This document shows positions 7,849 through 26,571 of a stretch of 64,000 bases of DNA, one piece after another. The translations under genes and the position numbers were made by a program. The stretch comes from Candidatus Kapaibacterium sp. (GTDB lineage Bacteria > Bacteroidota > Ignavibacteria > Kapaibacteriales > Kapaibacteriaceae): contig JAURGP010000002.1 of the NCBI GenBank assembly GCA_030833725.1, positions 6,773 to 70,772 of the forward strand, written 5' to 3'. The notes under the pieces were generated by a model that saw nothing but the letters and a program-made list of their open reading frames with translations, was not told the DNA's origin and did no database searches. Numbering within the stretch: position 1 is the stretch's first letter; each line of letters starts with the position of its first letter.

Positions 7849-7851
7849 GGG

Positions 7852-7859
7852 CGAAGATA
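7852..7859 (-). promoter_or_regulatory. Bacteroidota-type -7 promoter element (TATCTTCG)
   Basis: Variant of TAnnTTTG, 3 nt before the POT ATG. Confidence 0.45.
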
Positions 7860-7862
7860 GTG

Positions 7863-7880
7863 GACGAGGCCGGGAAAACC
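7863..7880. repeat. Half copy of the palindromic repeat
   Basis: GACGAGGCCGGGAAAACC is a 17/18 match to the left arm GACGACGCCGGGAAAACC; intergenic between divergent genes. Confidence 0.55.
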
Positions 7881-7981
7881 ACCAGGGCGGAATGCACAAG
7901 GAGGGCTGTGCGTTTCATATCTTTTCTCGTTGTCGGAAAATAAAAATAGGCGTCCGAACCTTCCTTGATTCTGTACCGCCC

Positions 7982-10843: not shown

Positions 10844-11443
10844 CTACCGAGTCCGTCTTCTCTTGCCCTCCAGGATTGCATCAAGAGACTTCTCGATGCG
10901 AGCTCGGCGGGTGGCACTCTTTTTCGCCGATGAGAAGTACATCAGGTACTCCCGTCGGCACCCAGGCGGTAGAGATTCGAAGGCGTGACGCACATCGTTC
11001 CACTTGTCCAGGATCTCTTGGAACTCCTCAGGCACGGGATAGTCCTGAATCGACATGCGTTCAACGGTCCGGCCTGATCGTTCAATCTCAAGTCCCTGCT
11101 GGATAAAGGCCCGGAGCTCTTTCTCCATCTTCTTGACCTCTTTGACAGAGGTAAAGTGCAAGCGCCTCGCTGCCTGGGTGTTAGGACCTGGCTTCTGGAG
11201 ATAACCATGTGGGTCGTCCATCAGAGCCCCCTTGAAGAAACCGATCACACAAGAGTCCTTCATCGATCCGATGATGAGTACGTTAGCATCGTTGAGGGTG
11301 TACACAGGTTGCTTCCACTTGAAGTCCTCGTAGAGGTCATCACTCACTGCCCTCACGATTGCTCGAAGTGCTTTAAGCTCGTTGGTCCAGGCCTGGATGG
11401 CATTGACGTAACGCTCAACGGCGGGGTTATCGTTGATGGCCAT
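10844..11443 (-). CDS. YdeI/OmpD-associated family protein (DUF1801)
   Basis: FKWKQPVYT, FFKGALM, AFESLPPG.RREY...SAKKSATR. Confidence 0.88.
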   Translation of the reverse strand: MAINDNPAVERYVNAIQAWTNELKALRAIVRAVSDDLYEDFKWKQPVYTLNDANVLIIGSMKDSCVIGFFKGALMDDPHGYLQKPGPNTQAARRLHFTSVKEVKKMEKELRAFIQQGLEIERSGRTVERMSIQDYPVPEEFQEILDKWNDVRHAFESLPPGCRREYLMYFSSAKKSATRRARIEKSLDAILEGKRRRTR

Positions 11444-11452
11444 ACGGTTCCG

Positions 11453-13507
11453 TTATTTTATTGGACTTAGCACCACCACGCCGGGAAAAGGTTTTCCCGG
11501 CGTGGTCGGCGTCGTCTGAACCACAAAGTACACACTCCGACCACTCACCAACACCTCCTCGCAGTGCTCCGAGCCTGTCACGACCCAACGCTTCACGAGG
11601 GTTCCATCATAGGCAAAGAGGGCAATCGTCTCTCCAGGCCACACACCGCGAACGCACACTCGGTTACCCTGCCACGATGCCGTGAACGACGGTGCTACAC
11701 GCTCTTCCACGTCCGTTGGAGCGAACTGAAAGGGTTCGCTCTCCGACGCACAGTTGCCGAATTGCCTGCTGCGCGTCACTACGCGGTAGGCCGCTGCTTT
11801 TGTTGGCACGTACCACGGCCGGTTCCAGCCTGTTATGGGCACATTACCAACAAACCACTGATAGCTGTCTGCCAGCGGCGATGCCCATAGTGTGTCGGCG
11901 CGCAGCGATAGTGAGGTGGTAGGGGGCTCGTAGTTACGCAGGGTGAAGCGCACTGGTCCAACTGTGAGTACGCAACCATTCTCGGCGTCAGGCAAAATCT
12001 CTGCAGTGATAGAGTATGTGCCGGGTTGTGCAATGGCAATCACCTCGTTGGTATCACCCGTACTCCACGCAACAGTGTTGTAGCCAGGCCCATCCACCTG
12101 AACGGACAACCGCAAGCCCCCTTCCCCATTACACAGAACGGTGTCTCCTGCTACGTTTACCCGCGCTGAAGGCACCGGAACTTGCGTCACCACAATCGAG
12201 TCTACCACCTCTCCACATCCTTTTGTGCTCCGGGCAATGGCACGGTACACTCCAGGAGTACTCACCGTAATCTCTGCAGTAGTTGCACCAGTCGACCACT
12301 CGACAGTGGCATCTGCACTGGCAGCTGCACGGAGTGTTACCGTATCACCTGGACATATCGCAGACGGTCCAATCATTTGCAATTCCGGGGGGCGTGCCCA
12401 CGCTATGATGGTGTCCACCACATCACCGTCAAAGCATGTTGTGTTCACCAAGGCGATCACATTTTCACGCTCCTTGATGACGTATCGATACGTCGTGCCA
12501 CGCACACTGTCGGGCAACCACATCACCGATGCTACCGGCCCGTTGTACGTCAGAACAATCGTGTCGCCTACGCATCCAACTGTGGTACTCATGCGGATGT
12601 CGCTACTGGCGAGTATCCGCATGGTTGTCTGCATCTGCGTCGTGCCTATGGCAGACATCGCACGATTGTCTCGGTTGAGGATGTGATTCACATAGGCAAA
12701 CGTGGTGGCAAACTGCTGAGCACGATCAATCGTACCGGGACACGTGAACTCACCGATGGAGCAGAGTGTATTCTGGTCTGCAAACTGACAGTGACTGCCG
12801 CCGGGAATCACGCCCAGTGCCTTGCACGTTGCCGCTACGGCGTTGTACATCGGTTGAATGGTTGTAAGGGGCGTCACGCAGTCCTCGCTTCCGGCAAGGA
12901 TCAACGTGGGGCAGGTTACCGAAGCCGCAGCAGCTGTTGCACTGGGATTTGTTTCGGCTGGTGCCAAGGCGATCACGCTGGCGAGATTCCAATCCGTGTT
13001 GTCAAGGATGGTTTTGGCTGCAAGAAACGAGGAGCCCCCTCCCATCGAGTGACCGATCAGGACGTAGTCATCACGAATCGCACCCTGCCAGCGTGAGCCT
13101 GCACGCGTGTTCTCTTGCCTGATCCATGCAAGACAGGCAACGATGTCATCGGCATACTCTGCATGATCTGGAAACAATCCGGAACCCGTTTCAGGAAGGA
13201 TGGCAATAAAGCCAGCGGAATTCTTGCAGACCTCCGTTGCCAATGAAGTGTAGGCCCCTACCGGTAGTTGGTATCCATGAGCGATGACTGCAACACCAAA
13301 GTTTTCAGTGGAGCCTGTCGTGGATCCCTGCAATGGCGCATCGGTGCCACCAGGTGCCTCGGCAGGATAGATGATGGTGACGGCGATGGATGCACCGCGA
13401 GCTGCATCCTGAAAGGTAAGGCGTGTACGACCCTCGTAGTAGGCTGCAGAAACAGTCTGGGCAACGGTGCATAGAATACCCACACACAACAGAAGAGTTA
13501 GCTTCAT
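11453..13507 (-). CDS. Secreted alpha/beta hydrolase (chlorophyllase/cutinase-like) with Ig-like repeats and T9SS-like CTD
   Basis: Signal peptide MKLTLLL; HGY oxyanion region, GHSMGGG nucleophile elbow, GSEDCV (Asp), GGSHCQF (His); WSTG repeats. Confidence 0.8.
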   Translation of the reverse strand: MKLTLLLCVGILCTVAQTVSAAYYEGRTRLTFQDAARGASIAVTIIYPAEAPGGTDAPLQGSTTGSTENFGVAVIAHGYQLPVGAYTSLATEVCKNSAGFIAILPETGSGLFPDHAEYADDIVACLAWIRQENTRAGSRWQGAIRDDYVLIGHSMGGGSSFLAAKTILDNTDWNLASVIALAPAETNPSATAAAASVTCPTLILAGSEDCVTPLTTIQPMYNAVAATCKALGVIPGGSHCQFADQNTLCSIGEFTCPGTIDRAQQFATTFAYVNHILNRDNRAMSAIGTTQMQTTMRILASSDIRMSTTVGCVGDTIVLTYNGPVASVMWLPDSVRGTTYRYVIKERENVIALVNTTCFDGDVVDTIIAWARPPELQMIGPSAICPGDTVTLRAAASADATVEWSTGATTAEITVSTPGVYRAIARSTKGCGEVVDSIVVTQVPVPSARVNVAGDTVLCNGEGGLRLSVQVDGPGYNTVAWSTGDTNEVIAIAQPGTYSITAEILPDAENGCVLTVGPVRFTLRNYEPPTTSLSLRADTLWASPLADSYQWFVGNVPITGWNRPWYVPTKAAAYRVVTRSRQFGNCASESEPFQFAPTDVEERVAPSFTASWQGNRVCVRGVWPGETIALFAYDGTLVKRWVVTGSEHCEEVLVSGRSVYFVVQTTPTTPGKPFPGVVVLSPIK
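11475..11506. repeat. Palindromic repeat copy 1 (in frame inside CDS 3' end)
   Basis: ACCACGCCGGGAAAA-GG-TTTTCCCGGCGTGGT, perfect 15-bp arms; encodes TTPGKPFPGVV. Confidence 0.95.
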
Positions 13508-13561
13508 CGCACTACCTTTGTTTCTGCGATACATCGTCCACGATACATGGTAGTGAAAATA

Positions 13562-14188
13562 ATGCACGCATTGGTCATTGGCGGTACTGGTCTTGTTGGC
13601 GTGGAACTGCTTCGACTTCTGGCGAGCGATACAGAGTTTTCACGTATTGACTCCGTGGGCCGCAGTATCGTACCCGACCTCCAGGATCGTGTTCATCAGG
13701 TAGTGATGGATCTCCTGGAGGAATCACTTCCAGCAAATGTCACGCCCGACGTTGTGTTCTGCTGCTTGGGCACAACGATTCGCACGGCTGGATCGCAAGA
13801 GGCCTTTCGCCGCGTAGACTATGAGATGCCGATGAGGATTGCCAAAGCTGCACGTACGCGTGGGGCGCAGCACTTCATTCTGGTGAGCTCGCTTGGAGCA
13901 AACCCCGCATCCCGAACGTTTTACTCCCGCATTAAGGGAGAACTGGAACGCGACCTCCAGAAGCTGGGGTATCCGTCACTGACGTTTGTCCGGCCGTCCT
14001 TGCTGTTGGGTGATCGCACTGAGCCACGGTTTGGTGAACAAGTAGCTACGCTTGTGATGCTCACGTTCCGGTTACTCATCCCACGCTCGTTGCGTGCCAT
14101 TTCAGCAACGCGCGTAGCAGCCGCAATGGTAGCCGCCGCGAAGCGGCGGCGGGTGGGGGTGGAGGTGATCGAGAATCGGGTGTTGTGA
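13562..14188 (+). CDS. NAD(P)-binding epimerase-like protein (YraR/TIP30-like)
   Basis: IGGTGLVG, CCLGTT, FRRVDY, YSRIKGELE, RPSLLLG. Confidence 0.88.
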   Translation: MHALVIGGTGLVGVELLRLLASDTEFSRIDSVGRSIVPDLQDRVHQVVMDLLEESLPANVTPDVVFCCLGTTIRTAGSQEAFRRVDYEMPMRIAKAARTRGAQHFILVSSLGANPASRTFYSRIKGELERDLQKLGYPSLTFVRPSLLLGDRTEPRFGEQVATLVMLTFRLLIPRSLRAISATRVAAAMVAAAKRRRVGVEVIENRVL

Positions 14189-14191
14189 CAG

Positions 14192-14217
14192 ACGCCGGGA
14201 AAAGGTTTTCCCGGCGT
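14192..14217. repeat. Palindromic repeat copy 2
   Basis: ACGCCGGGAAAAGGTTTTCCCGGCGT between convergent genes. Confidence 0.95.
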
Positions 14218-14231
14218 TGTCGATATGTCCG

Positions 14232-15359
14232 CTACGGCAACTCGTCGTACTGATACCCCAACACGGATTCATCCATGACAGCAGCTGGAGTATTGAGTCC
14301 GTCCATCCGGAAGTCCCAGGGCATGAGCACCTCATTCAACCCAGACATCATCTCGCCACCGGAGGCGTAGTTTTTTCCGTGCCGCTTCATCCAGCCTGAC
14401 CAGATCCGATCGATATTGGCGTGATGAATCCAGAAGACTGGATCGTTGGGCGACGTGGCTTGGCACATACTTCCTGCATAGATATTTCCGTCAGGTGCTC
14501 TCCAGATACCACCTACGTATACGTGAACGATGTTGTGTTGCGTGCTTCCACGCTCACCAGGAATACTAATTACATCCATAACTCCATTGGGATCGCATTC
14601 ATTACCTGCCGTTCCACGCCAACCCTCCAGAGAATTGCGGAAGCTGATCGTTGTATCAACAGAGCTATCCCATGGAGCACTGTCGTACGTGGGGATGCTA
14701 AGCGACCCCAATATTTCTGCACTGGTAGGTAGCAGTGCGTCGGCGTTGAGGTTCTTGCCGATTCGACGCGTCAGATATGGAACAACATTGGGACTTGTGT
14801 TGTGATCAAAGAACACCGAGTCAATATCCACTTCATCTGAAACGGTAATGATCCATGCATCCTTCTGGAAGGGGCCGGAGGTAACGGCATAGCCCTGTGA
14901 CGGATCACCATCGCCCCCTACCAATTCGTCCGAGAACAGAACCTGCTGAGCCGAGGGATCGGTCCAGTCCCAATATGGAATCGTGACATCCTTTCCACTG
15001 ACGTCGCGCAAAGCACGCTCGAACAGGTCAAGATACACGCGGTGCCATGGGAGGAAGCCGGGATTCATGTGGGCGGGAAACATGCCATCACCACCAACCG
15101 TACCTGCATCGCAGAAGAATGCGAGGTAGTGCCACTTCACGAACTGATCGTAATAATTCAGCGTGGGGTCGTATGGCGAGGGCACGGTCTTCAGCGCCTT
15201 CACTGCGGAGACGAAATCGGCTTTTTCCTCGGTTGTCATCCGGGTTACGCTCTTGCGCACACGCAGATTTGAGGGGTTCGATGGATTGGTTGACGTGCAT
15301 GCAGCGCTGAACAGAGCAACGATAGCCAGGCTGATGGCGATGTATGGTAGTGTTTTCAT
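14232..15359 (-). CDS. Tyrosinase (type-3 copper) lipoprotein
   Basis: Lipobox SAAC; CuA H...AH...FLPWHR; CuB HNIVH...SPNDPVFWIHHANID. Confidence 0.92.
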   Translation of the reverse strand: MKTLPYIAISLAIVALFSAACTSTNPSNPSNLRVRKSVTRMTTEEKADFVSAVKALKTVPSPYDPTLNYYDQFVKWHYLAFFCDAGTVGGDGMFPAHMNPGFLPWHRVYLDLFERALRDVSGKDVTIPYWDWTDPSAQQVLFSDELVGGDGDPSQGYAVTSGPFQKDAWIITVSDEVDIDSVFFDHNTSPNVVPYLTRRIGKNLNADALLPTSAEILGSLSIPTYDSAPWDSSVDTTISFRNSLEGWRGTAGNECDPNGVMDVISIPGERGSTQHNIVHVYVGGIWRAPDGNIYAGSMCQATSPNDPVFWIHHANIDRIWSGWMKRHGKNYASGGEMMSGLNEVLMPWDFRMDGLNTPAAVMDESVLGYQYDELP

Positions 15360-15382
15360 AGGTGCGATGATACGACAATGTA

Positions 15383-15441
15383 ACGACGCCGGGAAAACCT
15401 TTTCCCGGCGTGGTGCCGGGAAAAGGTTTTCCCGGCGTCGT
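15383..15441. repeat. Palindromic repeat copy 3 (inverted doublet)
   Basis: A CC-loop unit followed by a GG-loop unit; together a perfect 27-bp inverted repeat around GTGGT; between divergent genes. Confidence 0.95.
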
Positions 15442-15504
15442 CAACTTCCCGATGTTTGCCACAGCAAAACGTTCACCCCTTCACCCCCAACCACCTATAA
15501 CACC

Positions 15505-17331
15505 ATGCAGCAGTACCGCTACGTCATCAGTGCGTTTGTGTGCCTCTTCGTATGCCTCACGCTCACCGTACTTCCTAGTCTGGCACAGCAACAGGAGATT
15601 CCCCAGCCTCCATCTGTTCGTGCACGCGATGGAGTGCTGACCGACACACTGAACCTCGTGCTGGCCACAATCGCTGTAGGTGAACGCCAAGTATTGGCAC
15701 GCACCTACAACGGTACAGCTCCGGGGTCCATCTGGCGTGTTCACCCAGGTGAAACCATGCGGATTCACCTGAACAACCAGCTTCCTCCAAATCCGGATGC
15801 TGATCTGCCAGATCAAGGCAACTACCCGCAGCGTGCAAACACAACAAACCTGCACGTCCATGGTTTGAATGTGTCGCCAAAGGATAATGGCGACAACGTT
15901 CTGTTGAGCATTGAGCCACAATCGTCGTTCGACTTCGAGTTCGAGTTGCCCGCCGACCACGCAGCCGGCACATACTGGTATCACCCGCATCACCACACAT
16001 CCACGTGGTCGCAGGTGGTCAACGGTCTTGCTGGTGCCATCGTGATCGAGGATCCTACAGATCCATCAGTCACGGATCCTGCGCTCCTCGCCATGAGCGA
16101 TCGCGTGTTTCTCTTCTCGTCATACATGATCGATACGGCTACGAATACCATTGGCTATCCTCGCCGCTTAGCGTCTGCAACGGCAACGACCCCAATACCA
16201 GGTAGTGATTCACCCGTGTTCGTCAATGGTGTACTGTCAGGGACGGTTACCATGCGCCCTGGTGAGATTCAGCGCTGGCGCTTCATCGATGCCACGTATG
16301 AGTTTTCCATGCGCCTTACGTGGTTGCACATCAGCAATGGCGATACCACGCGTGTTGAGCAGTGGGAGATCGCTAACGATGGCTTGTACTTTCCTGCTCC
16401 GAAGCCAACCTCCCAGGTGACGTTTACTGCCGGTGCGCGGAGCGATGTTCTTGTGCAGGCGCCGGCCGCCGAAGGGCGCTATATAGTCCAGCTCGAGGCG
16501 TTGGATCGTGGGATGAGGGTGATGGAAACGCGAGAACTCATCGACATTATTGTAGGGGGCGACCCAGTGCTTCCAGCAATGACCATGCCGGCAGTTCTGC
16601 CGAAGGCCATGGCAGCGGGTACCATTCGCGACGAGGAGATTACTGGTACACGCCAGATCACGTTCCGCATCGGCGATTTTGGTGAGGTTGCGAAGGACTC
16701 TTCGGCTATCACCCGCACCTTTACGATCGACAACTCCCCGTTCAGCCATGATGTGGTGAACATGACAGTGAAAGCTGGCGATGTGGAGGAGTGGACGATT
16801 GTGAACGAGAGTGGCGGCTATCACCCATTTCACATCCACGTAAATGAGTTTGAAGTGGTTGAGGTGAATGGCGTACGTCAAGATCCGGTGATCTGGCGCG
16901 ACGTACTTCTGCTTGCACCCAATAGCACCTATAAGATTCGTCAGCGCTATACCGACTACGATGGCAAGACCGTCTTGCACTGCCACTTCCTTCCTCATGA
17001 AGACTGGGGCATGATGAACATCATCGATATTCTGCCTCGCACATCGAATGTGAAAGAGACACCGTGGACCGAGCCCCTTGCCTTCCCGAACCCTGTTACG
17101 GGCAGGATGTCCACACTGAATGTGCAACTGCCCGAATTCCTGGGAGACCGACGAGTGGACATCACGTTGCACGACATTACCGGCTCGGTGGTGAGAACAC
17201 TGCAGACGTCGGCGGCCGAAAGCCCAGTTGTAGAGATCGATGTACAGGATATGCCGGCAGGATCGTACTACGTGCGCGTATCGGACGGTGAGGCGTACCG
17301 TACATCGGATATGGTGATTATCGTTAGATGA
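15505..17331 (+). CDS. Multicopper oxidase with T9SS C-terminal domain
   Basis: HVHG, YWYHPH, HPFHIH and HCHFLPHEDWGMM copper motifs; signal peptide from MQQYRY; CTD FPNP...GSYYVRV. Confidence 0.93.
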   Translation: MQQYRYVISAFVCLFVCLTLTVLPSLAQQQEIPQPPSVRARDGVLTDTLNLVLATIAVGERQVLARTYNGTAPGSIWRVHPGETMRIHLNNQLPPNPDADLPDQGNYPQRANTTNLHVHGLNVSPKDNGDNVLLSIEPQSSFDFEFELPADHAAGTYWYHPHHHTSTWSQVVNGLAGAIVIEDPTDPSVTDPALLAMSDRVFLFSSYMIDTATNTIGYPRRLASATATTPIPGSDSPVFVNGVLSGTVTMRPGEIQRWRFIDATYEFSMRLTWLHISNGDTTRVEQWEIANDGLYFPAPKPTSQVTFTAGARSDVLVQAPAAEGRYIVQLEALDRGMRVMETRELIDIIVGGDPVLPAMTMPAVLPKAMAAGTIRDEEITGTRQITFRIGDFGEVAKDSSAITRTFTIDNSPFSHDVVNMTVKAGDVEEWTIVNESGGYHPFHIHVNEFEVVEVNGVRQDPVIWRDVLLLAPNSTYKIRQRYTDYDGKTVLHCHFLPHEDWGMMNIIDILPRTSNVKETPWTEPLAFPNPVTGRMSTLNVQLPEFLGDRRVDITLHDITGSVVRTLQTSAAESPVVEIDVQDMPAGSYYVRVSDGEAYRTSDMVIIVR

Positions 17332-17852
17332 TCAGACTTTTCTGGACAAATGTTGCACTCCTGATAGCGCTAGCTGTTGCGGCTGGCGCTGCAGTGCATA
17401 CGCCCCGTTCCATTGACTCCCTGCCTGTCGTGTATGGTGCTGATTCTTCCGCAATCGACCTTCTGGCAGCATCGGACACAACAACCGTCGTTGCCGTCCG
17501 ACATCTTGGTGCGATCTGCTCCCACTGCGTGGAGCAGATCATCCTGCTGAACGAGTACGCCAATGAGTTTCGTCGGAGAAATGCACGTGTGATTGCCTTC
17601 TCTATGGACGACGTTGATGAGTGCCAACTGGCAGCAAAGGAGCATGCCATCGACACCGATGTTCTGCAGCTCTGCTACGATGAGCGCGATGCGTGTTCTC
17701 GTGCAGTGGGTAGCACGATCCAGGAGATTGATGGATCGTTTACCGATCTCCACGCCGTGCTCGTGATCCGAAAGCGCATCGTGGTGTTTGAGCACTACTC
17801 TACGCAGCCGTTGATGTCGCTGGGTGGTGTTTTTGAGGTGCTGGGTGAGTGA
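17328..17852 (+). CDS. Redoxin (AhpC/TSA-like, thioredoxin fold) CxxC protein
   Basis: CSHC motif, VIAFSMD; ATGA overlap with the oxidase stop. Confidence 0.72.
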   Translation: MIRLFWTNVALLIALAVAAGAAVHTPRSIDSLPVVYGADSSAIDLLAASDTTTVVAVRHLGAICSHCVEQIILLNEYANEFRRRNARVIAFSMDDVDECQLAAKEHAIDTDVLQLCYDERDACSRAVGSTIQEIDGSFTDLHAVLVIRKRIVVFEHYSTQPLMSLGGVFEVLGE

Positions 17853-17873
17853 CGCCGAGGGCGACGGAGGACC

Positions 17874-17899
17874 ACGCCGGGAAAAGGTTTTCCCGGCGT
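17874..17899. repeat. Palindromic repeat copy 4
   Basis: ACGCCGGGAAAAGGTTTTCCCGGCGT between the redoxin and YHYH genes. Confidence 0.95.
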
Positions 17900-17958
17900 C
17901 GTGTAACTAACAGTCTGTTCACATAGTCCCCGCACGAGTTATCACATAGGAGAGCCGA

Positions 17959-19338
17959 ATGAGACGCGTCATTGCTACACTGCTTCTGGCTGCCAGTCCA
18001 GTACTTCACTACGCGCAAACCAACCCAGCGATTACATCGTGGTTGATTAACACAACTGGGGCAAAGGGTCGACACTACGTGCAGGGTAATCCTGCACCGA
18101 TTGCAGATACCATGCTTGCCAATGTGATGCTGGTGCGGTATTCGGAGGCATATAGCTATGTGAATTGCAACGGTATCCCTTCCTACGTGATTGGACCATA
18201 TCCCGACGGCAATCCGGCTACTGCGGTTGGACGGAACTATCTCTTCAAGATCCCGCTGGATCCTCAGCCAAACACCGGAACCAAAACGGCTGTCGGGTTA
18301 GGCCACATTGCAGTACTCGTCAACGGTGTGCCAGTGTACAACTACGCTGACGCGCGCTCGTACAACAACCAGAATATTTGGCACCAGAACGCCGTGTTCT
18401 TTGAGCGGATTGGATTCGACTGCTCGAAGGGTCATCCTGCACCTTTGCGTACGGGTCCTCCAGGTATGGGAGGGGGCTCGGCAGATGGTCAGTATCATCA
18501 TCACCAAGATCCCTCGGCCTTCAACGTTGCCAAGGTTGTGATGTCGGACATTTGCGATATGTACCTCGCTGATGGTCTGTACGTCCCAGATAGCACACAG
18601 CATGGCCCCCTGATTGGATTCGCCTTTGATGGCTATCCGATCTATGCTGCCTATGGATGGGCTGATGGCACTCAATCTGTTCGACGGATCACGTCCAGCT
18701 ATCAAATCCGCTCCATCGGCGAGCGAACAACACTTCCGGACGGCACAGTGCTGTCGACGTCACAGTATGGTCCTGCCCTATCGCAGTATCCACTTGGCGC
18801 CTACGCCGAGGACTACGAGTACCTTGCTGGTTCTGGTGACCTCGACGAGCATAACGGCAGGTTCTGCATCACGCCGGAGTATCCCGGTGGTACGTATGCC
18901 TACTTTGCGACGATCGATGAAGACGGTAATTCGGTGTACCCATATGTGATCGGGCCCACATACTACGGCGTAGTAGAGCAGTCGAATTTTGCTGGTACTG
19001 GCCCTGGAGCGGCTCCAACTCGGGTAACGATCACTGAACCAGTAACTCGCTACCTCCCCGGCGTGACCTCTGTTCGAGACGTAGAGAATGCCATTACTCC
19101 TACGGTGTTCCCAAATCCGGCCATGGACGTCATCATCGTACAAGTGCGGCAACCTCTTCAGGCTGATGCCACCGTCAGCATGTACGACCTACGAGGAGTC
19201 CTTGTCCGATCATCACGCATTCACTCCGGCAGCACGATGTGCTACGTGGATGTGGAGACACTGTACGCAGGCACGTACATCGTCCATGTTGAAACCCATG
19301 GTGTTGTACGGTCGTATCCAGTCATTCTTGGAGAGTGA
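17959..19338 (+). CDS. YHYH-domain protein with T9SS C-terminal domain
   Basis: VNGVP, GQYHHHQ, HGPLIGFAFDGYPIY, DLDEHNGR...GTYAYF; CTD VFPNPA. Confidence 0.85.
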   Translation: MRRVIATLLLAASPVLHYAQTNPAITSWLINTTGAKGRHYVQGNPAPIADTMLANVMLVRYSEAYSYVNCNGIPSYVIGPYPDGNPATAVGRNYLFKIPLDPQPNTGTKTAVGLGHIAVLVNGVPVYNYADARSYNNQNIWHQNAVFFERIGFDCSKGHPAPLRTGPPGMGGGSADGQYHHHQDPSAFNVAKVVMSDICDMYLADGLYVPDSTQHGPLIGFAFDGYPIYAAYGWADGTQSVRRITSSYQIRSIGERTTLPDGTVLSTSQYGPALSQYPLGAYAEDYEYLAGSGDLDEHNGRFCITPEYPGGTYAYFATIDEDGNSVYPYVIGPTYYGVVEQSNFAGTGPGAAPTRVTITEPVTRYLPGVTSVRDVENAITPTVFPNPAMDVIIVQVRQPLQADATVSMYDLRGVLVRSSRIHSGSTMCYVDVETLYAGTYIVHVETHGVVRSYPVILGE

Positions 19339-19341
19339 TCG

Positions 19342-19932
19342 GTGCTGGAGGTCCTTCTCTCGATTGTGTTTGTCGTCCACTCTACGGGAAATGGTGGGCA
19401 ATACACCTTGGAGCGCGCTCAGTGGTATGTTGGGAACGTTGAACTCCATGCCATCGACGGGAGTTCGTATCGCATCGCAGGCTACTACCTCCTAGATACC
19501 GACGATCCACAATCACTCAGGCTAGAGCTGCCAGAGCTTCTGCCTCACGCAGACTATCGGTCCTTGAGCTTCACTCTTGGGGTAGACAGCCTTGATAATC
19601 ACGGTGGACCGCGGGAGGGGGCTCTCGATCCAATGCACGGCATGTACTGGACCTGGTCGACAGGGTACATCTTCCTGAAGATTGAAGGTACGGCTTCGGC
19701 GTCGCCTCAGCCCAAGAAACGTATCGAGTACCACCTTGGGGGTTTTAGAGCCCCCTACAACAATATCCGTCGCGTACACTGTGCGATGACGAGCGGACAG
19801 GAAGCCCGCATCGTGGTAGATGTTGATGCGTTCATGCGCACGATTAATGTTGCCCAGACTCCAGGCGTCATGGATGTACGTTCATCTGCCGATCTGATTG
19901 ATCAGGCAGTGGAGATGTTCCGTGCACCATAA
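19342..19932 (+). CDS. MbnP-family copper-binding protein
   Basis: FTLGVDS...GALDP..GMYWTWSTGYIFLKIEG (WxW motif), YHLGG; directly upstream of a di-heme enzyme. Confidence 0.82.
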   Translation: MLEVLLSIVFVVHSTGNGGQYTLERAQWYVGNVELHAIDGSSYRIAGYYLLDTDDPQSLRLELPELLPHADYRSLSFTLGVDSLDNHGGPREGALDPMHGMYWTWSTGYIFLKIEGTASASPQPKKRIEYHLGGFRAPYNNIRRVHCAMTSGQEARIVVDVDAFMRTINVAQTPGVMDVRSSADLIDQAVEMFRAP

Positions 19933-20890
19933 GATTGTGGTTATCTGTATGCTGGTTGTAGCGATCGCTACAACGGTAGTGCAGAGTGGAAATCATGGTG
20001 AGCAGGACGAAGCAGTCGTTGCCCTTGGAAGACGACTGTTCTACGATCCCGTGCTTTCTGTAGATCAAACTACCAGCTGTGGTACGTGTCATCAGCAGTT
20101 TGCAGCGTTTGCGCATGTAGACCACGCGCTGAGTCACGGAGTGTACGGACGTATCGGTACCCGTAACGTACCGGCACTGCAGAATCTTGCATCTCGCCGT
20201 GGTTTCATGTGGGACGGTGCGATTGAGCACCTGGACATGCAGGCGTTAAGCCCCCTAACCAGTCACGCTGAAATGGGCGAAACCCTACCACGCATCCTAG
20301 AGAAGCTTGACAGTGTGGGATGGTGCCGAACCCTGATGACGCAGGCCTATGGTAGTCCAGACATTACGATCCCGCGAGTGCTGCGTGCATTGGGTCGATT
20401 CGTGGCTACGTTGGAGAGTCGTTCTTCTCGGTTCGACCGTTGGCATGCAGGGCAGGACACGTTAGCTGAGAACGAGAGACGAGGGTATGATCTTTTCCGA
20501 GCATACTGCGCATCATGCCACAATGGTATCGACTTCACCGATGATTCCTTTCGCAGCAATGGTCTGCCGCTGGATTCACTCTTGATGGATCACGGACGCG
20601 AGCGAGTAACGCTGGACGAGCAGGATCGGTACCGGTTCAAAGTGCCATCACTTCGAAACGTGGGGCGCACAATGCCCTATATGCATGATGGTCGGTTCAA
20701 GCGTCTTCGAGATGTACTTGCCCATTATGCGCAGCAAGACGATCTCGCCGACCATGCTGATCCGTTGGTGCGATCAATTGCACCACTGGATGACCGTGCC
20801 CGCAAGGATCTGATCGCCTTTCTGCTCACGCTGACTGATGAGGCATTTCTTCGGGATACAGCGTTCGGCGAGAAGGAGGTATGGGAGTAA
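19922..20890 (+). CDS. MbnH/MauG-like di-heme cytochrome c peroxidase family protein
   Basis: CGTCH and CASCH, FMWDG, FKVPSLRNV..TMPYMHDG; start codon uncertain (GTG 19922 chosen). Confidence 0.88.
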   Translation: MHHKIVVICMLVVAIATTVVQSGNHGEQDEAVVALGRRLFYDPVLSVDQTTSCGTCHQQFAAFAHVDHALSHGVYGRIGTRNVPALQNLASRRGFMWDGAIEHLDMQALSPLTSHAEMGETLPRILEKLDSVGWCRTLMTQAYGSPDITIPRVLRALGRFVATLESRSSRFDRWHAGQDTLAENERRGYDLFRAYCASCHNGIDFTDDSFRSNGLPLDSLLMDHGRERVTLDEQDRYRFKVPSLRNVGRTMPYMHDGRFKRLRDVLAHYAQQDDLADHADPLVRSIAPLDDRARKDLIAFLLTLTDEAFLRDTAFGEKEVWE

Positions 20891-20901
20891 GGACGACGTA
20901 A

Positions 20902-20937
20902 GGACCACGCCGGGAAAACCTTTTCCCGGCGTCGTCC
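20902..20937. repeat. Palindromic repeat copy 5
   Basis: GGACCACGCCGGGAAAA-CC-TTTTCCCGGCGTCGTCC between convergent genes. Confidence 0.95.
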
Positions 20938-20943
20938 GCAATT

Positions 20944-22119
20944 TCACCGATCCAGCGTCCCCATCACAATGCCAAACACATTCAATACACTGAGCTGCCC
21001 GTAGTTACCCGGCGTAAACGCTGGGCCACGTGCGAAGAAGACGCCGTGCATCTCGAGATGCGAGTTGTGGTGTCCATGATCTCCGCCTCCCCGAAACGGC
21101 CTGCCCTTTCTCACGAAGAAGCATCCAGGTCTGGTCATCAGGATGGCCGCAGGTGCTCTACCAGAAGCATCCATGTGGAGATCGGATAACGAATCGTCGG
21201 GCGCATACACATCAACCCACGATACGCGCTCGGCAATACTGCGCTGGAGACTATCAATGTTGGGAGGGGGCTGACGGTAGAGGTACACCAGATTCCCGGA
21301 TCCAATGATGCGGAAACCTGTTGTGTCCATCACAGATTCAAGTTCAATGCTGCATGACTCTTGCAAAGCAGTCATGCCGTGGTCGCTGACAACGATGATA
21401 TTCGTCGACTCCAGCATACCTCGCAACGCAAGCTCAGTTTCAAGGCGCACCAGAAGGTCTCCAGCAACACTCAACCCCTCGGAGATATTCGGAGAGTCTG
21501 GTCCTTCTCGATGACCGATGTCATCCAGTACTTCGAAGTACATCGTAGCTACCCGCGGAGGTGTAGGGCCATCGATCCACGACAGTAAGGAGTCAATTCG
21601 CTCATGGTAGTTGCGCGAAGGCTCGTACGGCAACCAGTGCGTAGGACGGTCACCAGAAAATGCCGTTTCGGATCCTGGCCAGAAGGCACACGCTGCCGTA
21701 AGCCCCCTACGCTCAGCTTCGATCCACAGCGGCGTGCCCCGCCACCATGCGGACTCTTTACGCTGCATCGTGAAGACGTCGTTGAGGGTGGAGTCGTAGA
21801 AGCTGTTGCCGACGATGCCGTTGTCGCGTGGGTACGCTCCGGTAGCAATTGCCCAATGGTTGGGAAACGTCTTGGTGGGGTTTACCGGCTTCAGACTCGA
21901 TGCTCGATAGCATTTGTTGAGGTAGGCAACGAAGCCTGGATGCGTGATTCGGTTGAGGTAGTCGTGGCGGAAGCCGTCGAAGGAGATCAGGATGGTAAGG
22001 GGCTTGCCGGGAGTGACGCCGGGAAAACCTTTTCCCGGCGTCGTCCCCCATAACGTCCCCAACGCAAAGGCGCTGATGAAGAACATCATCAGCGCCTTGG
22101 AGATCGAACTCTGTGTCAT
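20944..22119 (-). CDS. Nucleotide pyrophosphatase/phosphodiesterase (alkaline phosphatase superfamily)
   Basis: LISFDGFR, TKTFPNH (Thr nucleophile), DDIGH, VSDHGM, GDHG; carries an in-frame repeat insertion after the signal peptide. Confidence 0.92.
   Translation of the reverse strand: MTQSSISKALMMFFISAFALGTLWGTTPGKGFPGVTPGKPLTILISFDGFRHDYLNRITHPGFVAYLNKCYRASSLKPVNPTKTFPNHWAIATGAYPRDNGIVGNSFYDSTLNDVFTMQRKESAWWRGTPLWIEAERRGLTAACAFWPGSETAFSGDRPTHWLPYEPSRNYHERIDSLLSWIDGPTPPRVATMYFEVLDDIGHREGPDSPNISEGLSVAGDLLVRLETELALRGMLESTNIIVVSDHGMTALQESCSIELESVMDTTGFRIIGSGNLVYLYRQPPPNIDSLQRSIAERVSWVDVYAPDDSLSDLHMDASGRAPAAILMTRPGCFFVRKGRPFRGGGDHGHHNSHLEMHGVFFARGPAFTPGNYGQLSVLNVFGIVMGTLDR
22004..22044. repeat. 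Palindromic repeat copy 6 (in frame inside CDS)
   Basis: TTGCCGGGAGT-GACGCCGGGAAAACCTTTTCCCGGCGTCGTC; encodes TTPGKGFPGVTPGK. Confidence 0.95.
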
Positions 22120-22126
22120 AGGAAGA

Positions 22127-22368
22127 TTAGAACGTGTAGCGAATACCCACCTGCACCTGCCAACGCGAAGCTAAGTCGCTAAATCCAAACGGATCGCGCT
22201 TGTCCGTGTAGCTGCAGATCGGTGTGCCCACAGCAACTGGGCTGTCCGCACACGTCCCCAATCGGAGTTGAGCCTGCTCAGGAAGGTGATGAAGTCCCCG
22301 GAGATGTCTAGGCGGTGACCCTTGACGAATGGGTTTGGTAGCTCCTGCATCTGGCGCAGGTCCAGCTG
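22127..22368 (-). pseudogene. 3' remnant of an Oar-like TonB-dependent receptor (frameshifted)
   Basis: One frame gives QLDLRQMQELPNPFVKGHRLDISGDFITFLSRLNSDWGRV; another frame ends SDLASRWQVQVGIRYTF*. Both resemble Oar-type TBDR C-termini. No start codon; truncated at the repeat. Confidence 0.72.
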
Positions 22369-22373
22369 GGGCC

Positions 22374-22424
22374 GACGACGCCTTTCCCGGCGTGGTGCCG
22401 GGAAAAGGTTTTCCCGGCGTCGTC
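22374..22424. repeat. Palindromic repeat copy 7 (doublet with 10-nt deletion)
   Basis: Same layout as copy 3 but GGGAAAACCT is missing from the left unit. Confidence 0.92.
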
Positions 22425-22448
22425 CTCAAAAAACGCTTTGATATAACC

Positions 22449-22548
22449 GGGAACTTTCGCAAATAAGGCTTGCGTTAAACCAAAGCAAACCGAAAATATG
22501 CACTTGAACCCCCTTCTCGGGGGAACTTTCACCCTAGTCGCTTGGTTG
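22449..22548 (+). promoter_or_regulatory. Two tandem ECF-sigma-like promoters upstream of the rhodopsin gene
   Basis: GGGAACTTTC at 22449 and 22521; GGAACTT is followed after 16 nt by CGTT and GTT respectively. Confidence 0.4.
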
Positions 22549-22591
22549 TCAGCCACATCACTTTTTTCATTCACCTCTGTTAGGACGTGCT

Positions 22592-23380
22592 ATGGGGACA
22601 GAGTCTACGATGATCGCTTTGGGTAGCGATGGATACATGTTGGTGTTCAACATGTTCTCGTTCACGATTGCCGCAATGCTTTCGGCCTTCGTGTTTTTCA
22701 TTTTGCGGCGTTCAGCCGTTGCACCGCAGTATCGCATGTCGCTGGTGGTGTCGTCGTTGGTAGTGGGCATTGCTGCCTATCACTACATTCGGATTTTCGA
22801 TAGCTGGAACCATGCATACGACATGGCTACCGGTATGTATAACCCTGCGTTGTTCAACGACGCATATCGCTACGTGGACTGGCTCCTGACTGTTCCTCTG
22901 CTTCTTGTTGAGTTGATCCTTGTGTTGAATCTTGGCCGAGACAAGTCCGGTCCTCTGTTGACCAACCTGTCGATTGCCGCTGTACTGATGATTGCCCTCG
23001 GCTATCCAGGCGAAGTCATGAGTGCTACGGCAAAGACGTCTATGATGTCCGAGTACGGCATGTGGGGCTTCTTGTCGACCATTCCTTTCGCCTACATCCT
23101 GTTTGTCCTATGGGGCAAGCTGGGCTCGGCTATGGAATCACAGCCTGAGCGCGTACGCGTATTGTTCCGCAACCTCCGACTCCTTCTGATCGCTACATGG
23201 GGTTTCTACCCAATCGTGTACTGCCTGCCTTATTTCGGTATGGACATTGCCTCGTCGATCGTCTCGATCCAGACGGGCTATGCCATCGCTGACGTTCTGG
23301 CTAAGGCTGGCTATGGTGTAATGATCTACGCCATCGCTCGCGAGAAGTCGGCGGCCGACGGATGGCGCGAAGCTGCGTAA
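22592..23380 (+). CDS. Microbial rhodopsin, xanthorhodopsin-type DTE proton pump
   Basis: Seven TM segments; AYHY, RYVDWLLTVPLLLVE (D-T-E), LGYPGE, WGFLSTIPF, TWGFYP, DVLAK (retinal Lys). Alternative start at 22610. Confidence 0.95.
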   Translation: MGTESTMIALGSDGYMLVFNMFSFTIAAMLSAFVFFILRRSAVAPQYRMSLVVSSLVVGIAAYHYIRIFDSWNHAYDMATGMYNPALFNDAYRYVDWLLTVPLLLVELILVLNLGRDKSGPLLTNLSIAAVLMIALGYPGEVMSATAKTSMMSEYGMWGFLSTIPFAYILFVLWGKLGSAMESQPERVRVLFRNLRLLLIATWGFYPIVYCLPYFGMDIASSIVSIQTGYAIADVLAKAGYGVMIYAIAREKSAADGWREAA

Positions 23381-23410
23381 GCGTCGTACATAACAACACG
23401 TCAAACGCAC

Positions 23411-23445
23411 AAAGGTGGCAGTACGATGTACTGCCACCTTTTCTG
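23411..23445 (+). terminator. Rho-independent terminator of the rhodopsin gene
   Basis: AAAGGTGGCAGTAC-GAT-GTACTGCCACCTTT followed by a T-rich tail. Confidence 0.85.
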
Positions 23446-23457
23446 TTTCCGAGTCTG

Positions 23458-23500
23458 TTGCCGGGAGTGGCGCCGGGAAAACCTTTTCCCGGCGCCATTC
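23458..23500. repeat. Palindromic repeat copy 8 (compensatory variant)
   Basis: TTGCCGGGAGTGGCGCCGGGAAAA-CC-TTTTCCCGGCGCCATTC; an A-T pair of the consensus is replaced by G-C. Confidence 0.93.
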
Positions 23501-23553
23501 TTCTGTACATTTGTCACCTAGGTACGACCATCTATTCAATCCCCGAGAATTCC

Positions 23554-23907
23554 ATGTCAATACGTTTTCTTCGCACCATTGCTAGCGTGCTGCTTTTGTC
23601 GTTTGTCATGATCAGCTGCTCAAGCACAACCATGATCACGTCAGAGCCTCCTGGTGCAAAGCTGTACATCAATGGTATGAGTGTTGGTAACACACCATAT
23701 ACGCATTCTGATACGCGTATCGTTGGCTCAATGCTGATGATCAAGCTCGAGAAGGAGGGGTATGAGCCCCTTAACACCTTCATCACACGTGACGAACGCG
23801 TAGACGTTGGTGCAGTCATTGGTGGACTGTTCTTGCTCGTGCCATTCCTCTGGACAATGCAGTACAATCCACAGCACAACTATGAGCTCGCACCGCTGAA
23901 GAAGTAG
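23554..23907 (+). CDS. PEGA-domain lipoprotein
   Basis: Lipobox MISC; ITSEPPGAKLYING...GNTP...LEKEGYE. Confidence 0.82.
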   Translation: MSIRFLRTIASVLLLSFVMISCSSTTMITSEPPGAKLYINGMSVGNTPYTHSDTRIVGSMLMIKLEKEGYEPLNTFITRDERVDVGAVIGGLFLLVPFLWTMQYNPQHNYELAPLKK

Positions 23908-23916
23908 TAAACGGTA

Positions 23917-23954
23917 GACGCCGGGAGTGACGCCGGGAAAAGGTTTTCCCGGCG
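23917..23954. repeat. Palindromic repeat copy 9
   Basis: GACGCCGGGAGT plus core GG-loop palindrome, between convergent genes. Confidence 0.93.
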
Positions 23955-23966
23955 CGGTTCTACATC

Positions 23967-25190
23967 CTACTCTGCTCGGTACCCATTCACCGGGTCGAAC
24001 GTCCCAATCACCACCCATGTGGGCTGGCCGTTAACCATACGGATGCCCATCATGTTGTAGATGCCATTCTTGCGGTCACCGGCGGCATTGAATGTGGCGT
24101 CTCCCGAGATGCCCTGATAGTTCTCCGCTCTGGCTACGATGCCGGTACGCAGCGCATCTGCCGTTGCAGCGTTTCCGAGCTCAAGAATCGTGTTTCCTAC
24201 AAGCGTTACGGCATCGTAGGTGCTCAGAGCAAACGCATCTGGTGTGAGTCCAGTTTGTTGCTCGATCGTGGCAATCACCGGCTGAGCACGCTCCACTGCA
24301 TCCCCGATCCCAACGTTTGGACAGGCATAGCCAACCTGCTCGAAGAACTCTGCCTGAGCCAGCAAGGCCGCACTCTCTACAGTGCCATCGCCTCCGTACC
24401 AGCGAACGCCACGCAGCAGGGTGTCGGTTACCGGGATAGCAGCTGCAAGCTGCGCTGCCTCGTCAAAAGCAGGGTTGTAGACTGCAACCTTGTCAATTCC
24501 GTAGATGCCTACGGCGATTCCTACTTCTGTGCGTAGTTGCTCGACGACTGCAGTAAAGTCGGTAGTGGTTACTGCATACTCAAAGCCCCCTACCACATCC
24601 CCACCGTTGGCCTTCATATCGGCACGCACACTGGATGCGAGACCTCGATTACCAATGTCGTCGCGCGCAACGGAAACCACGATGTTGCGGCCTTCAGCGC
24701 GCATCATTGCGGCGATAGCAGGGCCCTCCTGCTGATCGCTGGGACACATGCGAAGGAGGTTGTCGTTCTCGATCGCCAGGGCACCAGCCGTACTCGAGGG
24801 ACTGACAACAATCACCTCCTGTGCATTAGCCGTGGAGAGAATCGCGGAGGCCTCTGCGCTGGATTGGGGTCCGATGACAACCCGTACACCATTGGAAATC
24901 GCGTCGGTAAGGGACGTTTGCGCGCGGTTGGCTTCAAGCTTGGTGTCGTACAAACGCCACATAAAGCGCTTGCTTGAGCCTTGGGCTTCAAGCTTGGAGT
25001 TCAGATCATTGATGGCAATCCGGGCAGCTGCGTCGGCTGTAGTGCCTAGCGTATTCCAGGACCCCGTGATTGACAGCAGGCCTCCGATTTCCGGGAAGTC
25101 GTCGTCGCCATTGGGGTTTGTTGGCGTTGTGGAAGAGGCGCAGGCGCTGAGGAGAGCTGCCGTGGCGAGAAGAAGAAGGGTGTGTTTCAT
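23967..25190 (-). CDS. Branched-chain amino acid ABC substrate-binding-like lipoprotein (type I periplasmic binding fold)
   Basis: Lipobox LSAC; IGGLLSITG, VIGPQSS, SPSSTA, YDAV, GISG...FNAAGDR. Confidence 0.85.
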   Translation of the reverse strand: MKHTLLLLATAALLSACASSTTPTNPNGDDDFPEIGGLLSITGSWNTLGTTADAAARIAINDLNSKLEAQGSSKRFMWRLYDTKLEANRAQTSLTDAISNGVRVVIGPQSSAEASAILSTANAQEVIVVSPSSTAGALAIENDNLLRMCPSDQQEGPAIAAMMRAEGRNIVVSVARDDIGNRGLASSVRADMKANGGDVVGGFEYAVTTTDFTAVVEQLRTEVGIAVGIYGIDKVAVYNPAFDEAAQLAAAIPVTDTLLRGVRWYGGDGTVESAALLAQAEFFEQVGYACPNVGIGDAVERAQPVIATIEQQTGLTPDAFALSTYDAVTLVGNTILELGNAATADALRTGIVARAENYQGISGDATFNAAGDRKNGIYNMMGIRMVNGQPTWVVIGTFDPVNGYRAE

Positions 25191-25195
25191 GGGGG

Positions 25196-25203
25196 CGAAG
25201 ATA
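25196..25203 (-). promoter_or_regulatory. Bacteroidota-type -7 promoter element (TATCTTCG)
   Basis: 5 nt upstream of the ATG at 25190. Confidence 0.45.
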
Positions 25204-25204
25204 C

Positions 25205-25269
25205 ACGCCGGGAATGACGCCGGGAAAAGGTTTTCCCGGCGTCACTCCCGGCAAACCTTTTCCCGGCGT
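25205..25269. repeat. Palindromic repeat copy 10 (composite 12+27+27 nt)
   Basis: ACGCCGGGAATG-ACGCCGGGAAAAGGTTTTCCCGGCGTC-ACTCCCGGCAAACCTTTTCCCGGCGT between divergent genes. Confidence 0.95.
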
Positions 25270-25286
25270 GGTGCGTTTACCCAGCC

Positions 25287-26546: not shown

Positions 26547-26571
26547 CGCCGGGAAAACCTTTTCCCGGCGT
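26531..26571. repeat. Palindromic repeat copy 11 (provides stop codon)
   Basis: ACGACGCCGGGAGTGACGCCGGGAAAACCTTTTCCCGGCGT; TGA at 26544-26546. Confidence 0.95.

Follow-up and report, generated by a model that had tools for sequence, protein, structure and literature searches.

Two conserved modules in a Kapaibacterium region for exported copper and haem proteins: tyrosinase with multicopper oxidase-redoxin, and YHYH-MbnP-MbnH

When genes for several exported copper proteins adjoin one another, do they encode one system or several? This question is raised by a 64,000-nucleotide stretch of Candidatus Kapaibacterium sp. (contig JAURGP010000002.1; the whole stretch is called the window here), in which six genes for exported copper or haem proteins lie within positions 14232-20890. 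A sequence-only reading of this DNA had proposed a single surface system for copper loading and phenol oxidation, in which MbnP, MbnH, a YHYH-domain protein and a redoxin might metallate a tyrosinase and a multicopper oxidase (MCO). Using an open reading frame (ORF) listing, Pfam and NCBIfam profile scans and sequence checks, we found all six genes, with the features ascribed to them, at the places that this reading had given. Base composition is even across the region. The six genes are:

14232..15359, minus strand: type-3 copper tyrosinase, predicted lipoprotein, 375 residues (PF00264)
15505..17331, plus strand: three-domain laccase-like MCO with a signal peptide and a type IX secretion system (T9SS) type A C-terminal domain, 608 residues (Cu-oxidase_3, Cu-oxidase, Cu-oxidase_2, PF18962)
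17328..17852, plus strand: exported thioredoxin-fold protein with a CSHC motif, called the redoxin here (AhpC-TSA), its start overlapping the MCO stop as ATGA
17959..19338, plus strand: YHYH-domain protein with a signal peptide and a T9SS type A C-terminal domain, 459 residues (PF14240, PF18962)
19342..19932, plus strand: short-form MbnP with a WxW motif, 196 residues (PF20243), its GTG start 3 nt past the YHYH stop and preceded by GGAG 7 nt upstream
19898..20890, plus strand: MauG-type di-haem enzyme, MbnH-like (CCP_MauG), with two CxxCH motifs

The genes make up three transcription units, and these fall into two conserved modules that can occur apart, namely module A (tyrosinase and MCO-redoxin) and module B (YHYH-MbnP-MbnH). 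Module B, which ties an uncharacterised family of secreted proteins to a pair that builds copper sites, is the more interesting and the more widely conserved of the two.

Linkage of the six genes in related loci

To compare gene content, related loci were collected with a profile made from 15 YHYH relatives, which yielded 80 loci, one genome per species. Most come from Ignavibacteriota or from Bacteroidota, the latter both Kapaibacteria-type and Bacteroidia; a few belong to other phyla. The window proteins were searched against all stop-to-stop ORFs of these loci (numbered with an L below), recurrent neighbours were sought by clustering every called gene, and a YHYH tree was built with FastTree. 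All 80 loci are anchored on YHYH, and absences apply to the sampled flanks.

MbnH adjoins YHYH in 45 of the 80 loci, and at least one of MbnP and MbnH does so in 46. MbnP was detected in 43, and in four loci that show only one gene of the pair the contig breaks off. When at least 2.2 kb is required on either side, 49 loci remain, and the MbnP/MbnH pair (MbnPH) adjoins YHYH in 31 of these. Two gene orders were observed. The order YHYH-MbnP-MbnH is found in 14 loci, all belonging to a Kapaibacteria-type clade that includes the window (support 99), and the order MbnP-MbnH-YHYH in 31 loci from 11 named Bacteroidota families. The median gene gaps of module B are 12, -14 and 41 nt, which is operon-like, and four cultured Hymenobacter strains carry the operon (L022, L026, L027 and L046). 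Among the cultured carriers are H. ruricola BT662, H. rubidus DG7B, H. negativus BT442 and H. saemangeumensis JCM 17923.

In Bacteroidia, the operon is often preceded by a further set of genes. Considering the 21 Bacteroidia loci with the order MbnP-MbnH-YHYH and at least 2 kb upstream, an extracytoplasmic function (ECF) sigma factor gene is present in 10, and a Metal_resist/LTXXQ gene stands directly before mbnP in 10 by script (11 when L056 is counted from its gene map). This set, located ~0.1-1.5 kb before mbnP in L031, L033, L036, L043, L044, L046, L047, L048, L056, L066 and L078, often comprises, besides the ECF sigma factor gene, a small uncharacterised ORF and a gene for a Metal_resist/LTXXQ protein that is anchored in the membrane and rich in His and Pro at its ends. 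In Kapaibacteria-type loci, a second, divergent YHYH-like gene (about 447 residues) occurs in 8 and a T9SS-tailed Lcl_C protein in 9; these extra genes lie just upstream of the operon, or downstream of it in L001 (L001, L005, L009, L010, L014, L015, L017, L021). The window carries neither. Further copies of the pair were also noted: 2-5 kb upstream of its YHYH operon, L016 carries one more MbnP-like gene with a tandem pair of MbnH-like genes after it (5032-8082), and L018 has two MbnH-like genes at 5111-7175, where an MbnP-like ORF was not detected.

Module A has a much narrower distribution. Tyrosinase together with MCO-redoxin was found in 4 of the 80 loci (L004, L007, L008 and L077), all from the Kapaibacteria-type clade and all at 3-7 kb from YHYH. 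The three genes are complete in L004, L007 and L008, and the L077 contig ends inside the redoxin gene; in each of the four loci that have a tyrosinase, it adjoins MCO-redoxin. No MbnP or MbnH gene was found in the sampled DNA of these four loci, indicating that the oxidases do not need a co-encoded MbnPH. Conversely, neither tyrosinase nor redoxin lies within the sampled flanks of the 45 YHYH-MbnPH loci, one of which (L031) has a single distant MCO (98 bits). In this sample MbnPH therefore goes with YHYH rather than with the oxidases.

These counts bear directly on the single system that had been proposed. A co-occurrence analysis of the six families, which the sequence-only reading had suggested, thus supports linkage within each module and the proximity of the oxidases to YHYH, but the six families occur together in none of the 80 loci, and the proposed link between MbnPH and the two oxidases is not supported. 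The opposite case that it had envisaged, in which the blocks are never linked elsewhere, does not hold either, given the four loci with module A near YHYH and the 45 with YHYH-MbnPH.

L004 and the L007 group fall in different sub-clades of the YHYH tree, and the window presents a third arrangement. L004 and the L007-group loci have just four families in common, namely YHYH, tyrosinase, MCO and redoxin, and both the order of these and the intervening genes differ. Because such sharing of four families exceeds what leftover synteny would give, it is plausible that YHYH and the oxidase set are functionally connected in the Kapaibacteria-type lineage. A 425-residue ORF that follows YHYH in L004 was considered as a hidden MbnP and rejected (hhalign probability 0.1, no NCBIfam match).

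In the literature on YHYH, PF14240 and MbnP/MbnH we found no report of a link between YHYH and MbnPH, a search that did not extend to the neighbourhood analyses of the primary MbnPH papers. Nothing relevant to the tyrosinase/MCO module was found in the literature on tyrosinase, type IX secretion and multicopper oxidases.

The YHYH, MbnP and MbnH proteins

The YHYH protein matches PF14240 with an E-value of 4.9e-50 (170.6 bits, cut-off 25), and its tail matches the T9SS models PF18962 (39 bits, cut-off 27) and TIGR04183 (32.4 bits, cut-off 23). Like that of the MCO, its N-terminus is hydrophobic with a basic n-region; on the basis of the C-terminal sorting domain and the signal peptide, both proteins are predicted to be T9SS type A cargo. 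Residues H215, D224, Y229, D285, D296, R301 and Y315 are kept in all 80 loci, and D154, H159, Y179, H180 and H182 in 78 of them. PDB searches by sequence and by profile matched the T9SS tail only, the Atlas gave no usable YHYH match, and relaxed Pfam scans of YHYH and MbnP revealed no second family.

The family is large, with 2,764 representative clusters matching PF14240 at E up to 0.001. Of 8,000 candidates scored against the window protein, at least 3,937 are relatives with E up to 1e-5, and PF14240 and a T9SS tail occur together in 118 of 120 YHYH relatives among the matches listed. The domain is also present in diatoms (PMC11992049). It is uncharacterised in the literature that we found, where a zinc site of three His plus Asp is predicted (PMC7824862; bioRxiv 10.64898/2026.10.18.759936; these two sources and all those cited below are drawn on from the portion of their text that was available). 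The residues of this predicted site are retained in 78-80 of the 80 sequences and in a cyanophage homologue.

We also surveyed fusions in 32 long YHYH members, chosen by length from 150 listed. A T9SS tail is present in 13 and adhesin-type repeats in many, while two carry a sulfatase and two an arylsulfotransferase (P0156, P0257, P0150 and P0204). Moreover, the gene immediately upstream of YHYH encodes an arylsulfotransferase in three of the four loci with module A (L007:8315-9913, L008:6906-8462 and L077:8318-9904). Arylsulfotransferases, tyrosinases and laccases all act on phenols, and this shared chemistry gives a hint, no more, that the extracellular substrates of YHYH may be phenolic or sulfated. 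Two tandem YHYH genes of an Acidobacteria locus are followed by a fragment (L079:13228-13893) whose match to another di-haem peroxidase family, PF06537, is borderline (22.7 bits, cut-off 22).

MbnP matches PF20243 over profile positions 24-188 of 189 (E 3.9e-40, 138 bits, cut-off 27). Its WxW motif is W103-T-W105, and all 24 aligned sequences share M101, W103, W105 and H131. In described MbnP proteins the copper site is formed by His, Met and kynurenine (PMC11951088); the invariant M101, W103/W105 and H131 fit such a site and are candidate residues for it. The N-terminus is ~36 residues shorter than in 18 homologues and starts with a hydrophobic stretch that has no basic n-region. The same 196-residue form is found in relatives at 98% and 76% identity (forms of 208-209 residues occur at about 50%), so that a fresh pseudogene could be rejected and the short MbnP is a conserved variant of this lineage. 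Read-through of the YHYH stop codon was also considered, as mbnP is in the same frame, with the TGA and one codon between. It was rejected because the homologues have signal peptides of their own that begin a few codons past the stop, and because a GGAG precedes the GTG start.

The start of mbnH is ambiguous: TTG 19898 opens the ORF, and an alternative GTG at 19922 has a GGAG 7 nt upstream. Both candidates overlap the 3' end of mbnP. The protein matches CCP_MauG with an E-value of 1.1e-45, its CxxCH motifs are at positions 61 and 204, and Tyr277 aligns with the haem ligand Tyr294 of MauG as well as with a Tyr of the solved MbnH 6e1c. Both haem motifs, Tyr277 and Trp105 are kept in 42-43 of 43 sequences, and Trp105 probably lies between the two haems. 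Judged by their profile scores, the YHYH-linked MbnP and MbnH proteins are a divergent sub-family of the pair.

No methanobactin family, MbnB/DUF692-type or otherwise, and no further copper-homeostasis family was found in a Pfam scan of 58 window ORFs, in agreement with the absence of mbnABC noted before, although mbnA was not specifically searched for. The same scan revealed no MbnT-type transporter in the window.

The oxidases, the redoxin and the palindromes around them

The tyrosinase matches PF00264 with an E-value of 4.4e-42 (145 bits, cut-off 22.6). Its N-terminus is MKTLPYIAISLAIVALFSAAC, a signal peptide ending in Cys21. The CuA and CuB sites are complete, with three His each (His77/97/106 and His275/279/312(313)), and Cys21 and the copper ligands His77/97/106/275/279/312/313 are invariant in the window protein and the three relatives aligned with it. 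Against the MelC2 equivalog NF047834 the protein scores 176 bits, under the cut-off of 450, and no neighbouring ORF matched the Pfam family of the MelC1-type caddie. After mollusc haemocyanins, its closest solved relatives are the bacterial tyrosinases 8hpi, 3nm8 and 1wx2 (E 1e-37 to 5e-40).

The MCO ORF opens at 15163, and the likely start is ATG 15505, which is followed by the signal peptide. All four copper motifs are present (HVH117, HPH160, HPFHIH440 and HCHFLPHEDWGM492) and invariant in 4 of 4 sequences, and the T9SS domain scores above the cut-offs of both PF18962 (34.9 bits, cut-off 27) and TIGR04183 (29.8 bits, cut-off 23). The MCO is 55-66% identical to those of L004, L007 and L008. 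Among solved proteins it is closest to the Thermus thermophilus laccase 2xu9 (E 9e-43), and it reaches 116 bits against the CueO model, whose cut-off is 525. A role as methionine-rich cuprous oxidase was dropped, since the MCO alignment shows no methionine-rich segment. A second T9SS-tagged MCO is encoded in L004 (14681-16378), directly downstream of the tyrosinase gene and overlapping its end.

The redoxin is translationally coupled to the MCO by the ATGA overlap of their genes, and L004 and L007 have the same 4-nt overlap. Profile scores of the redoxin are weak (AhpC-TSA 30.7 bits, cut-off 26; Redoxin 23.9 bits, under the cut-off of 26.6), a PDB search gave no significant match, and a large protein set contained 4 close homologues. 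Its motif is C64-S-H-C67, and C64, H66, C67, C99, C116, C123 and H142 are invariant in 4 of 4 sequences. The Atlas's own model of the protein is confident and thioredoxin-like (predicted template modelling score 0.80) and matches redoxin clusters. A structure search in the Atlas also returned a cluster of 862-residue Tyrosinase + Kelch proteins (template modelling score 0.75 by query), and a possible fusion link between redoxin and tyrosinase is taken from this model-based match as a lead only. To regard the redoxin as a Sco-type copper chaperone would be speculation; SCO1 was not matched even at E up to 10.

The sequence-only reading had described three blocks bounded by repeats. The repeats are real, but they bound about ten transcription units of mixed function and not only these blocks. 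They are palindromes of 22-28 nt with the form GCCGGGAAAA(GG/CC)TTTTCCCGGC, present in 12 perfect copies where 0 are expected, plus 1 degenerate copy, and they are confined to 11480-26569, 15 kb of accessory genes, being absent from the other 49 kb of the window. They form strong hairpins. Some sit at 3' ends, and the 5' regions of divergent genes contain them as inverted pairs. Around the six genes they are placed as follows:

14194..14215, no strand: palindrome resembling a repetitive extragenic palindromic (REP) element, at the convergent 3' ends of the epimerase-like and tyrosinase genes, a perfect copy of GCCGGGAAAAGGTTTTCCCGGC
15388..15436, no strand: two inverted REP-like palindromes in the divergent tyrosinase/MCO region (15360-15504 folds at -68.1 kcal/mol, z -8.2)
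17876..17897, no strand: REP-like palindrome separating the redoxin gene from the YHYH gene (RNA of this gap folds at -38.7 kcal/mol, z -2.3)
20909..20930, no strand: REP-like palindrome at the convergent 3' ends of the mbnH and phosphodiesterase genes (folds at -27.5 kcal/mol, z -5.3)

In L007, L008 and L077, a Y1 (RAYT-like) transposase gene stands beside YHYH, flanked by inverted repeats with the same hairpin stem. In L007 this gene (11425-12084, repeats at 11377-11406 and 12090-12119) occupies the place that mbnP-mbnH has in sister loci. No Y1 transposase of that kind is present in the window. Given the shared stem, the window palindromes are probably the REP elements of this lineage. One further copy (22018-22039) lies inside the listed phosphodiesterase ORF (20944-22119), near its 5' end, so that the true start of this gene is probably further downstream. 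The same REP-bounded stretch contains a microbial rhodopsin gene (22592-23380; PF01036, E 1.6e-36) followed by a PEGA-domain gene (23362-23907).

Scans for regulatory elements gave little. Sites found in a sigma-70 promoter and terminator scan were fewer than in shuffled sequences, and TAnnTTTG, the Bacteroidetes -7 promoter consensus, is absent upstream of the three units. An Rfam scan gave no match at gathering thresholds; two sub-threshold hits, CRISPR-DR20 at 14120-14155 (30.8 bits, threshold 42) and WsnRNA59 at 25202-25281 (27.9 bits, threshold 49, overlapping a REP pair), were taken as chance.

Possible roles and relation to known systems

On the strength of gene linkage and of analogy with the methanotroph pair, we lean somewhat towards a reading in which two modules are juxtaposed through a shared neighbour, YHYH, which would act as hub, with MbnPH serving YHYH and module A oxidizing phenols. 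It starts from the gene content, the motifs and the linkage within each module, which are observed directly. In module B, MbnH, a periplasmic enzyme with a Tyr-ligated haem, would use H2O2 to oxidize a Trp of the MbnP WxW motif to kynurenine, as in the methanotroph pair, and this kynurenine would complete a copper site with Met101 and His131. Copper-loaded MbnP may then serve the co-encoded YHYH protein, with its invariant His/Asp metal site, and the loading or maturation of YHYH would take place in the periplasm, ahead of its transport, in folded form, to the surface by the T9SS. In module A, the lipoprotein tyrosinase and the secreted laccase-like MCO would oxidize phenols at the surface, and the CSHC redoxin would probably keep cysteines reduced during copper insertion, or guard against peroxide or quinones. 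Cross-talk between the modules is possible, as their proximity recurs in Kapaibacteria, and not obligatory, as each module occurs without the other.

Several observations weigh against this two-module reading and its copper chemistry. Both members of the pair fall short of their equivalog models: MbnP scores 38 bits against TIGR04052 (cut-off 140), and the best NCBIfam match of MbnH, TIGR04039, reaches 181 bits (cut-off 362.85; 171.5 for the MauG model). The three other YHYH-linked pairs scored in this way are also far under these cut-offs (3 of 3). Export of MbnP is uncertain owing to its atypical N-terminus, and PDB searches by sequence and profile yielded no alignment to a solved MbnP. Moreover, MbnPH is missing beside YHYH in 18 of the 49 assessable loci, and 27 of the 55 neighbour genes listed from 14 of these 18 loci did not reveal another partner that recurs. 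Since sampling was anchored on YHYH, the fraction of Bacteroidota MbnPH pairs that have a YHYH neighbour cannot be derived from it. YHYH domains also occur in 464 phage records, almost all from cyanophages and partly annotated as baseplate protein (some as gp7). The phage domains are 32-35% identical to it, D154, H159, Y179, H180, H182, H215, D224, D285 and D296 are kept in a cyanophage homologue, and as these phage domains have the same His/Asp residues and no MbnPH, the domain works there without a co-encoded pair. Finally, the published prediction for YHYH is a zinc hydrolase and not a copper protein (PMC7824862).

This last point leads to a possible but doubtful alternative, in which YHYH is not a copper protein but depends on zinc and either hydrolyses or binds surface polymers, as has been predicted for phage tail proteins, and MbnPH acts on it oxidatively or takes part in an unrelated copper stress response. 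The predicted zinc site (His triad and Asp), the retention of its residues in phage proteins that include baseplate gp7, and the fusions to adhesin-type repeats, sulfatase and arylsulfotransferase are all consistent with it. However, a three-His site suits copper equally, and the tight operon with a copper-site-building pair, together with the metal-resistance/ECF module, points to metal or redox chemistry. We regard as unlikely a chance juxtaposition, that is, three unrelated cassettes assembled in a REP-rich variable region with no link beyond each operon. The palindromes do bound every unit of a mixed accessory set (hydrolase, epimerase-like, phosphodiesterase, rhodopsin, PEGA, binding protein and beta-lactamase-fold genes), identical 28-nt repeats are targets for recombination, the related REP elements flank a transposase beside YHYH in three loci, and the six-gene set is unique to the window. 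Yet YHYH-MbnP-MbnH is clearly an operon conserved across Bacteroidota, and three sub-lineages combine tyrosinase, MCO-redoxin and YHYH with otherwise different neighbours, a pattern that neither chance nor simple leftover synteny would give.

The single six-gene system, in which MbnPH, YHYH and the redoxin would metallate tyrosinase and MCO, seems to us rather improbable. That the genes adjoin in the window, that all products are exported and two are T9SS-tagged, and that tyrosinase and MCO-redoxin lie near YHYH in two other Kapaibacteria sub-lineages, in different order and with these four families as the sole shared ones, would be expected of it. T9SS cargo is exported folded, so that copper insertion must be periplasmic, which such a system would provide for. 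In Proteobacteria, moreover, MbnPH-like and AhpC_TSA genes co-occur in copper-regulated operons (PMC9426467). On the other hand, the full set is missing from the sampled loci; the four with the oxidases near YHYH lack MbnP and MbnH in the DNA sampled, and the 45 with YHYH-MbnPH lack tyrosinase and redoxin; strong REP hairpins separate the blocks; and the known tyrosinase copper chaperones, MelC1 and PpoB2, are unrelated to these proteins (PMC2855505). The idea is thus weaker than the link within module B, and relevant to Kapaibacteria-type organisms only.

The two-module reading matters beyond this genome for two reasons. The YHYH family has no assigned function, and its conservation in one operon with MbnP/MbnH, often preceded by an ECF sigma factor gene and one of metal-resistance type, offers it a first context in copper or redox chemistry that can be tested. 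MbnP/MbnH pairs, for their part, occur far beyond methanobactin producers, and a genome-mining paper of 2013 called them 'mysterious partners' (PMC3621798). For pairs outside methanotrophs, whose presence is unexplained, a third partner from among the T9SS cargo suggests what they may serve. As a wider proposal, tentative and on present evidence unlikely, the divergent MbnP/MbnH would be a dedicated periplasmic system for maturing, or loading copper into, secreted YHYH metalloproteins in Bacteroidota and relatives; YHYH proteins would then be a new family of extracellular enzymes, containing copper or modified by MbnH, whose substrates at the surface are phenolic or sulfated, and which in Kapaibacteria work alongside a surface tyrosinase and laccase.

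How do the two modules compare with known systems? Module B most resembles the MbnP/MbnH of Methylosinus trichosporium OB3b, with a WxW protein beside a MauG-like di-haem enzyme (PF20243 and CCP_MauG), the invariant Met, Trp and His, and the Tyr haem-ligand position. It differs in having no mbnABC or MbnT-type genes in the window, in its low equivalog scores and lack of a sequence match to solved MbnP, in the N-terminally short MbnP, and in a third partner, the T9SS-secreted YHYH. In a methanotroph, deletion of mbnP or mbnH leaves copper-bound methanobactin outside the cell (PMC13729199). In the methanotroph MopE/CorA systems, a surface or secreted copper protein with kynurenine in its site is likewise encoded beside a di-haem cytochrome c peroxidase (PMC3621798, PMC11951088); there, however, the secreted protein itself bears the kynurenine, whereas in the window it is YHYH, from a family not related to these, that is secreted, and the WxW protein lacks a T9SS tag. 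MauG shares with MbnH the two haems, the Tyr ligand, a conserved Trp and, presumably, the oxidation of a periplasmic partner (methylamine dehydrogenase in its case), but the MauG model scores lower than the MbnH model and no mau genes accompany the window pair.

As for module A, the Streptomyces MelC1/MelC2 and Marinomonas PpoB1/PpoB2 and PpoA systems have in common with it a type-3 copper tyrosinase with six His, and Marinomonas, too, makes a laccase-like MCO in addition to tyrosinase, with a chaperone that serves tyrosinase only (PMC2855505). The window showed no chaperone of the MelC1 or PpoB2 type, its tyrosinase is predicted to be a lipoprotein exported by Sec, and its MCO has a T9SS tag and a coupled CSHC redoxin. 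The four copper motifs and three domains of this MCO are those of the laccase 2xu9 and of CueO-type MCOs, to which it adds the T9SS C-terminal domain, without a visible methionine-rich segment. Finally, the cyanophage baseplate and tail proteins belong to the same Pfam family as YHYH and keep its site residues, but they are structural virion proteins without MbnPH, whereas the Bacteroidota subfamily consists of stand-alone T9SS cargo encoded in an operon with MbnPH.

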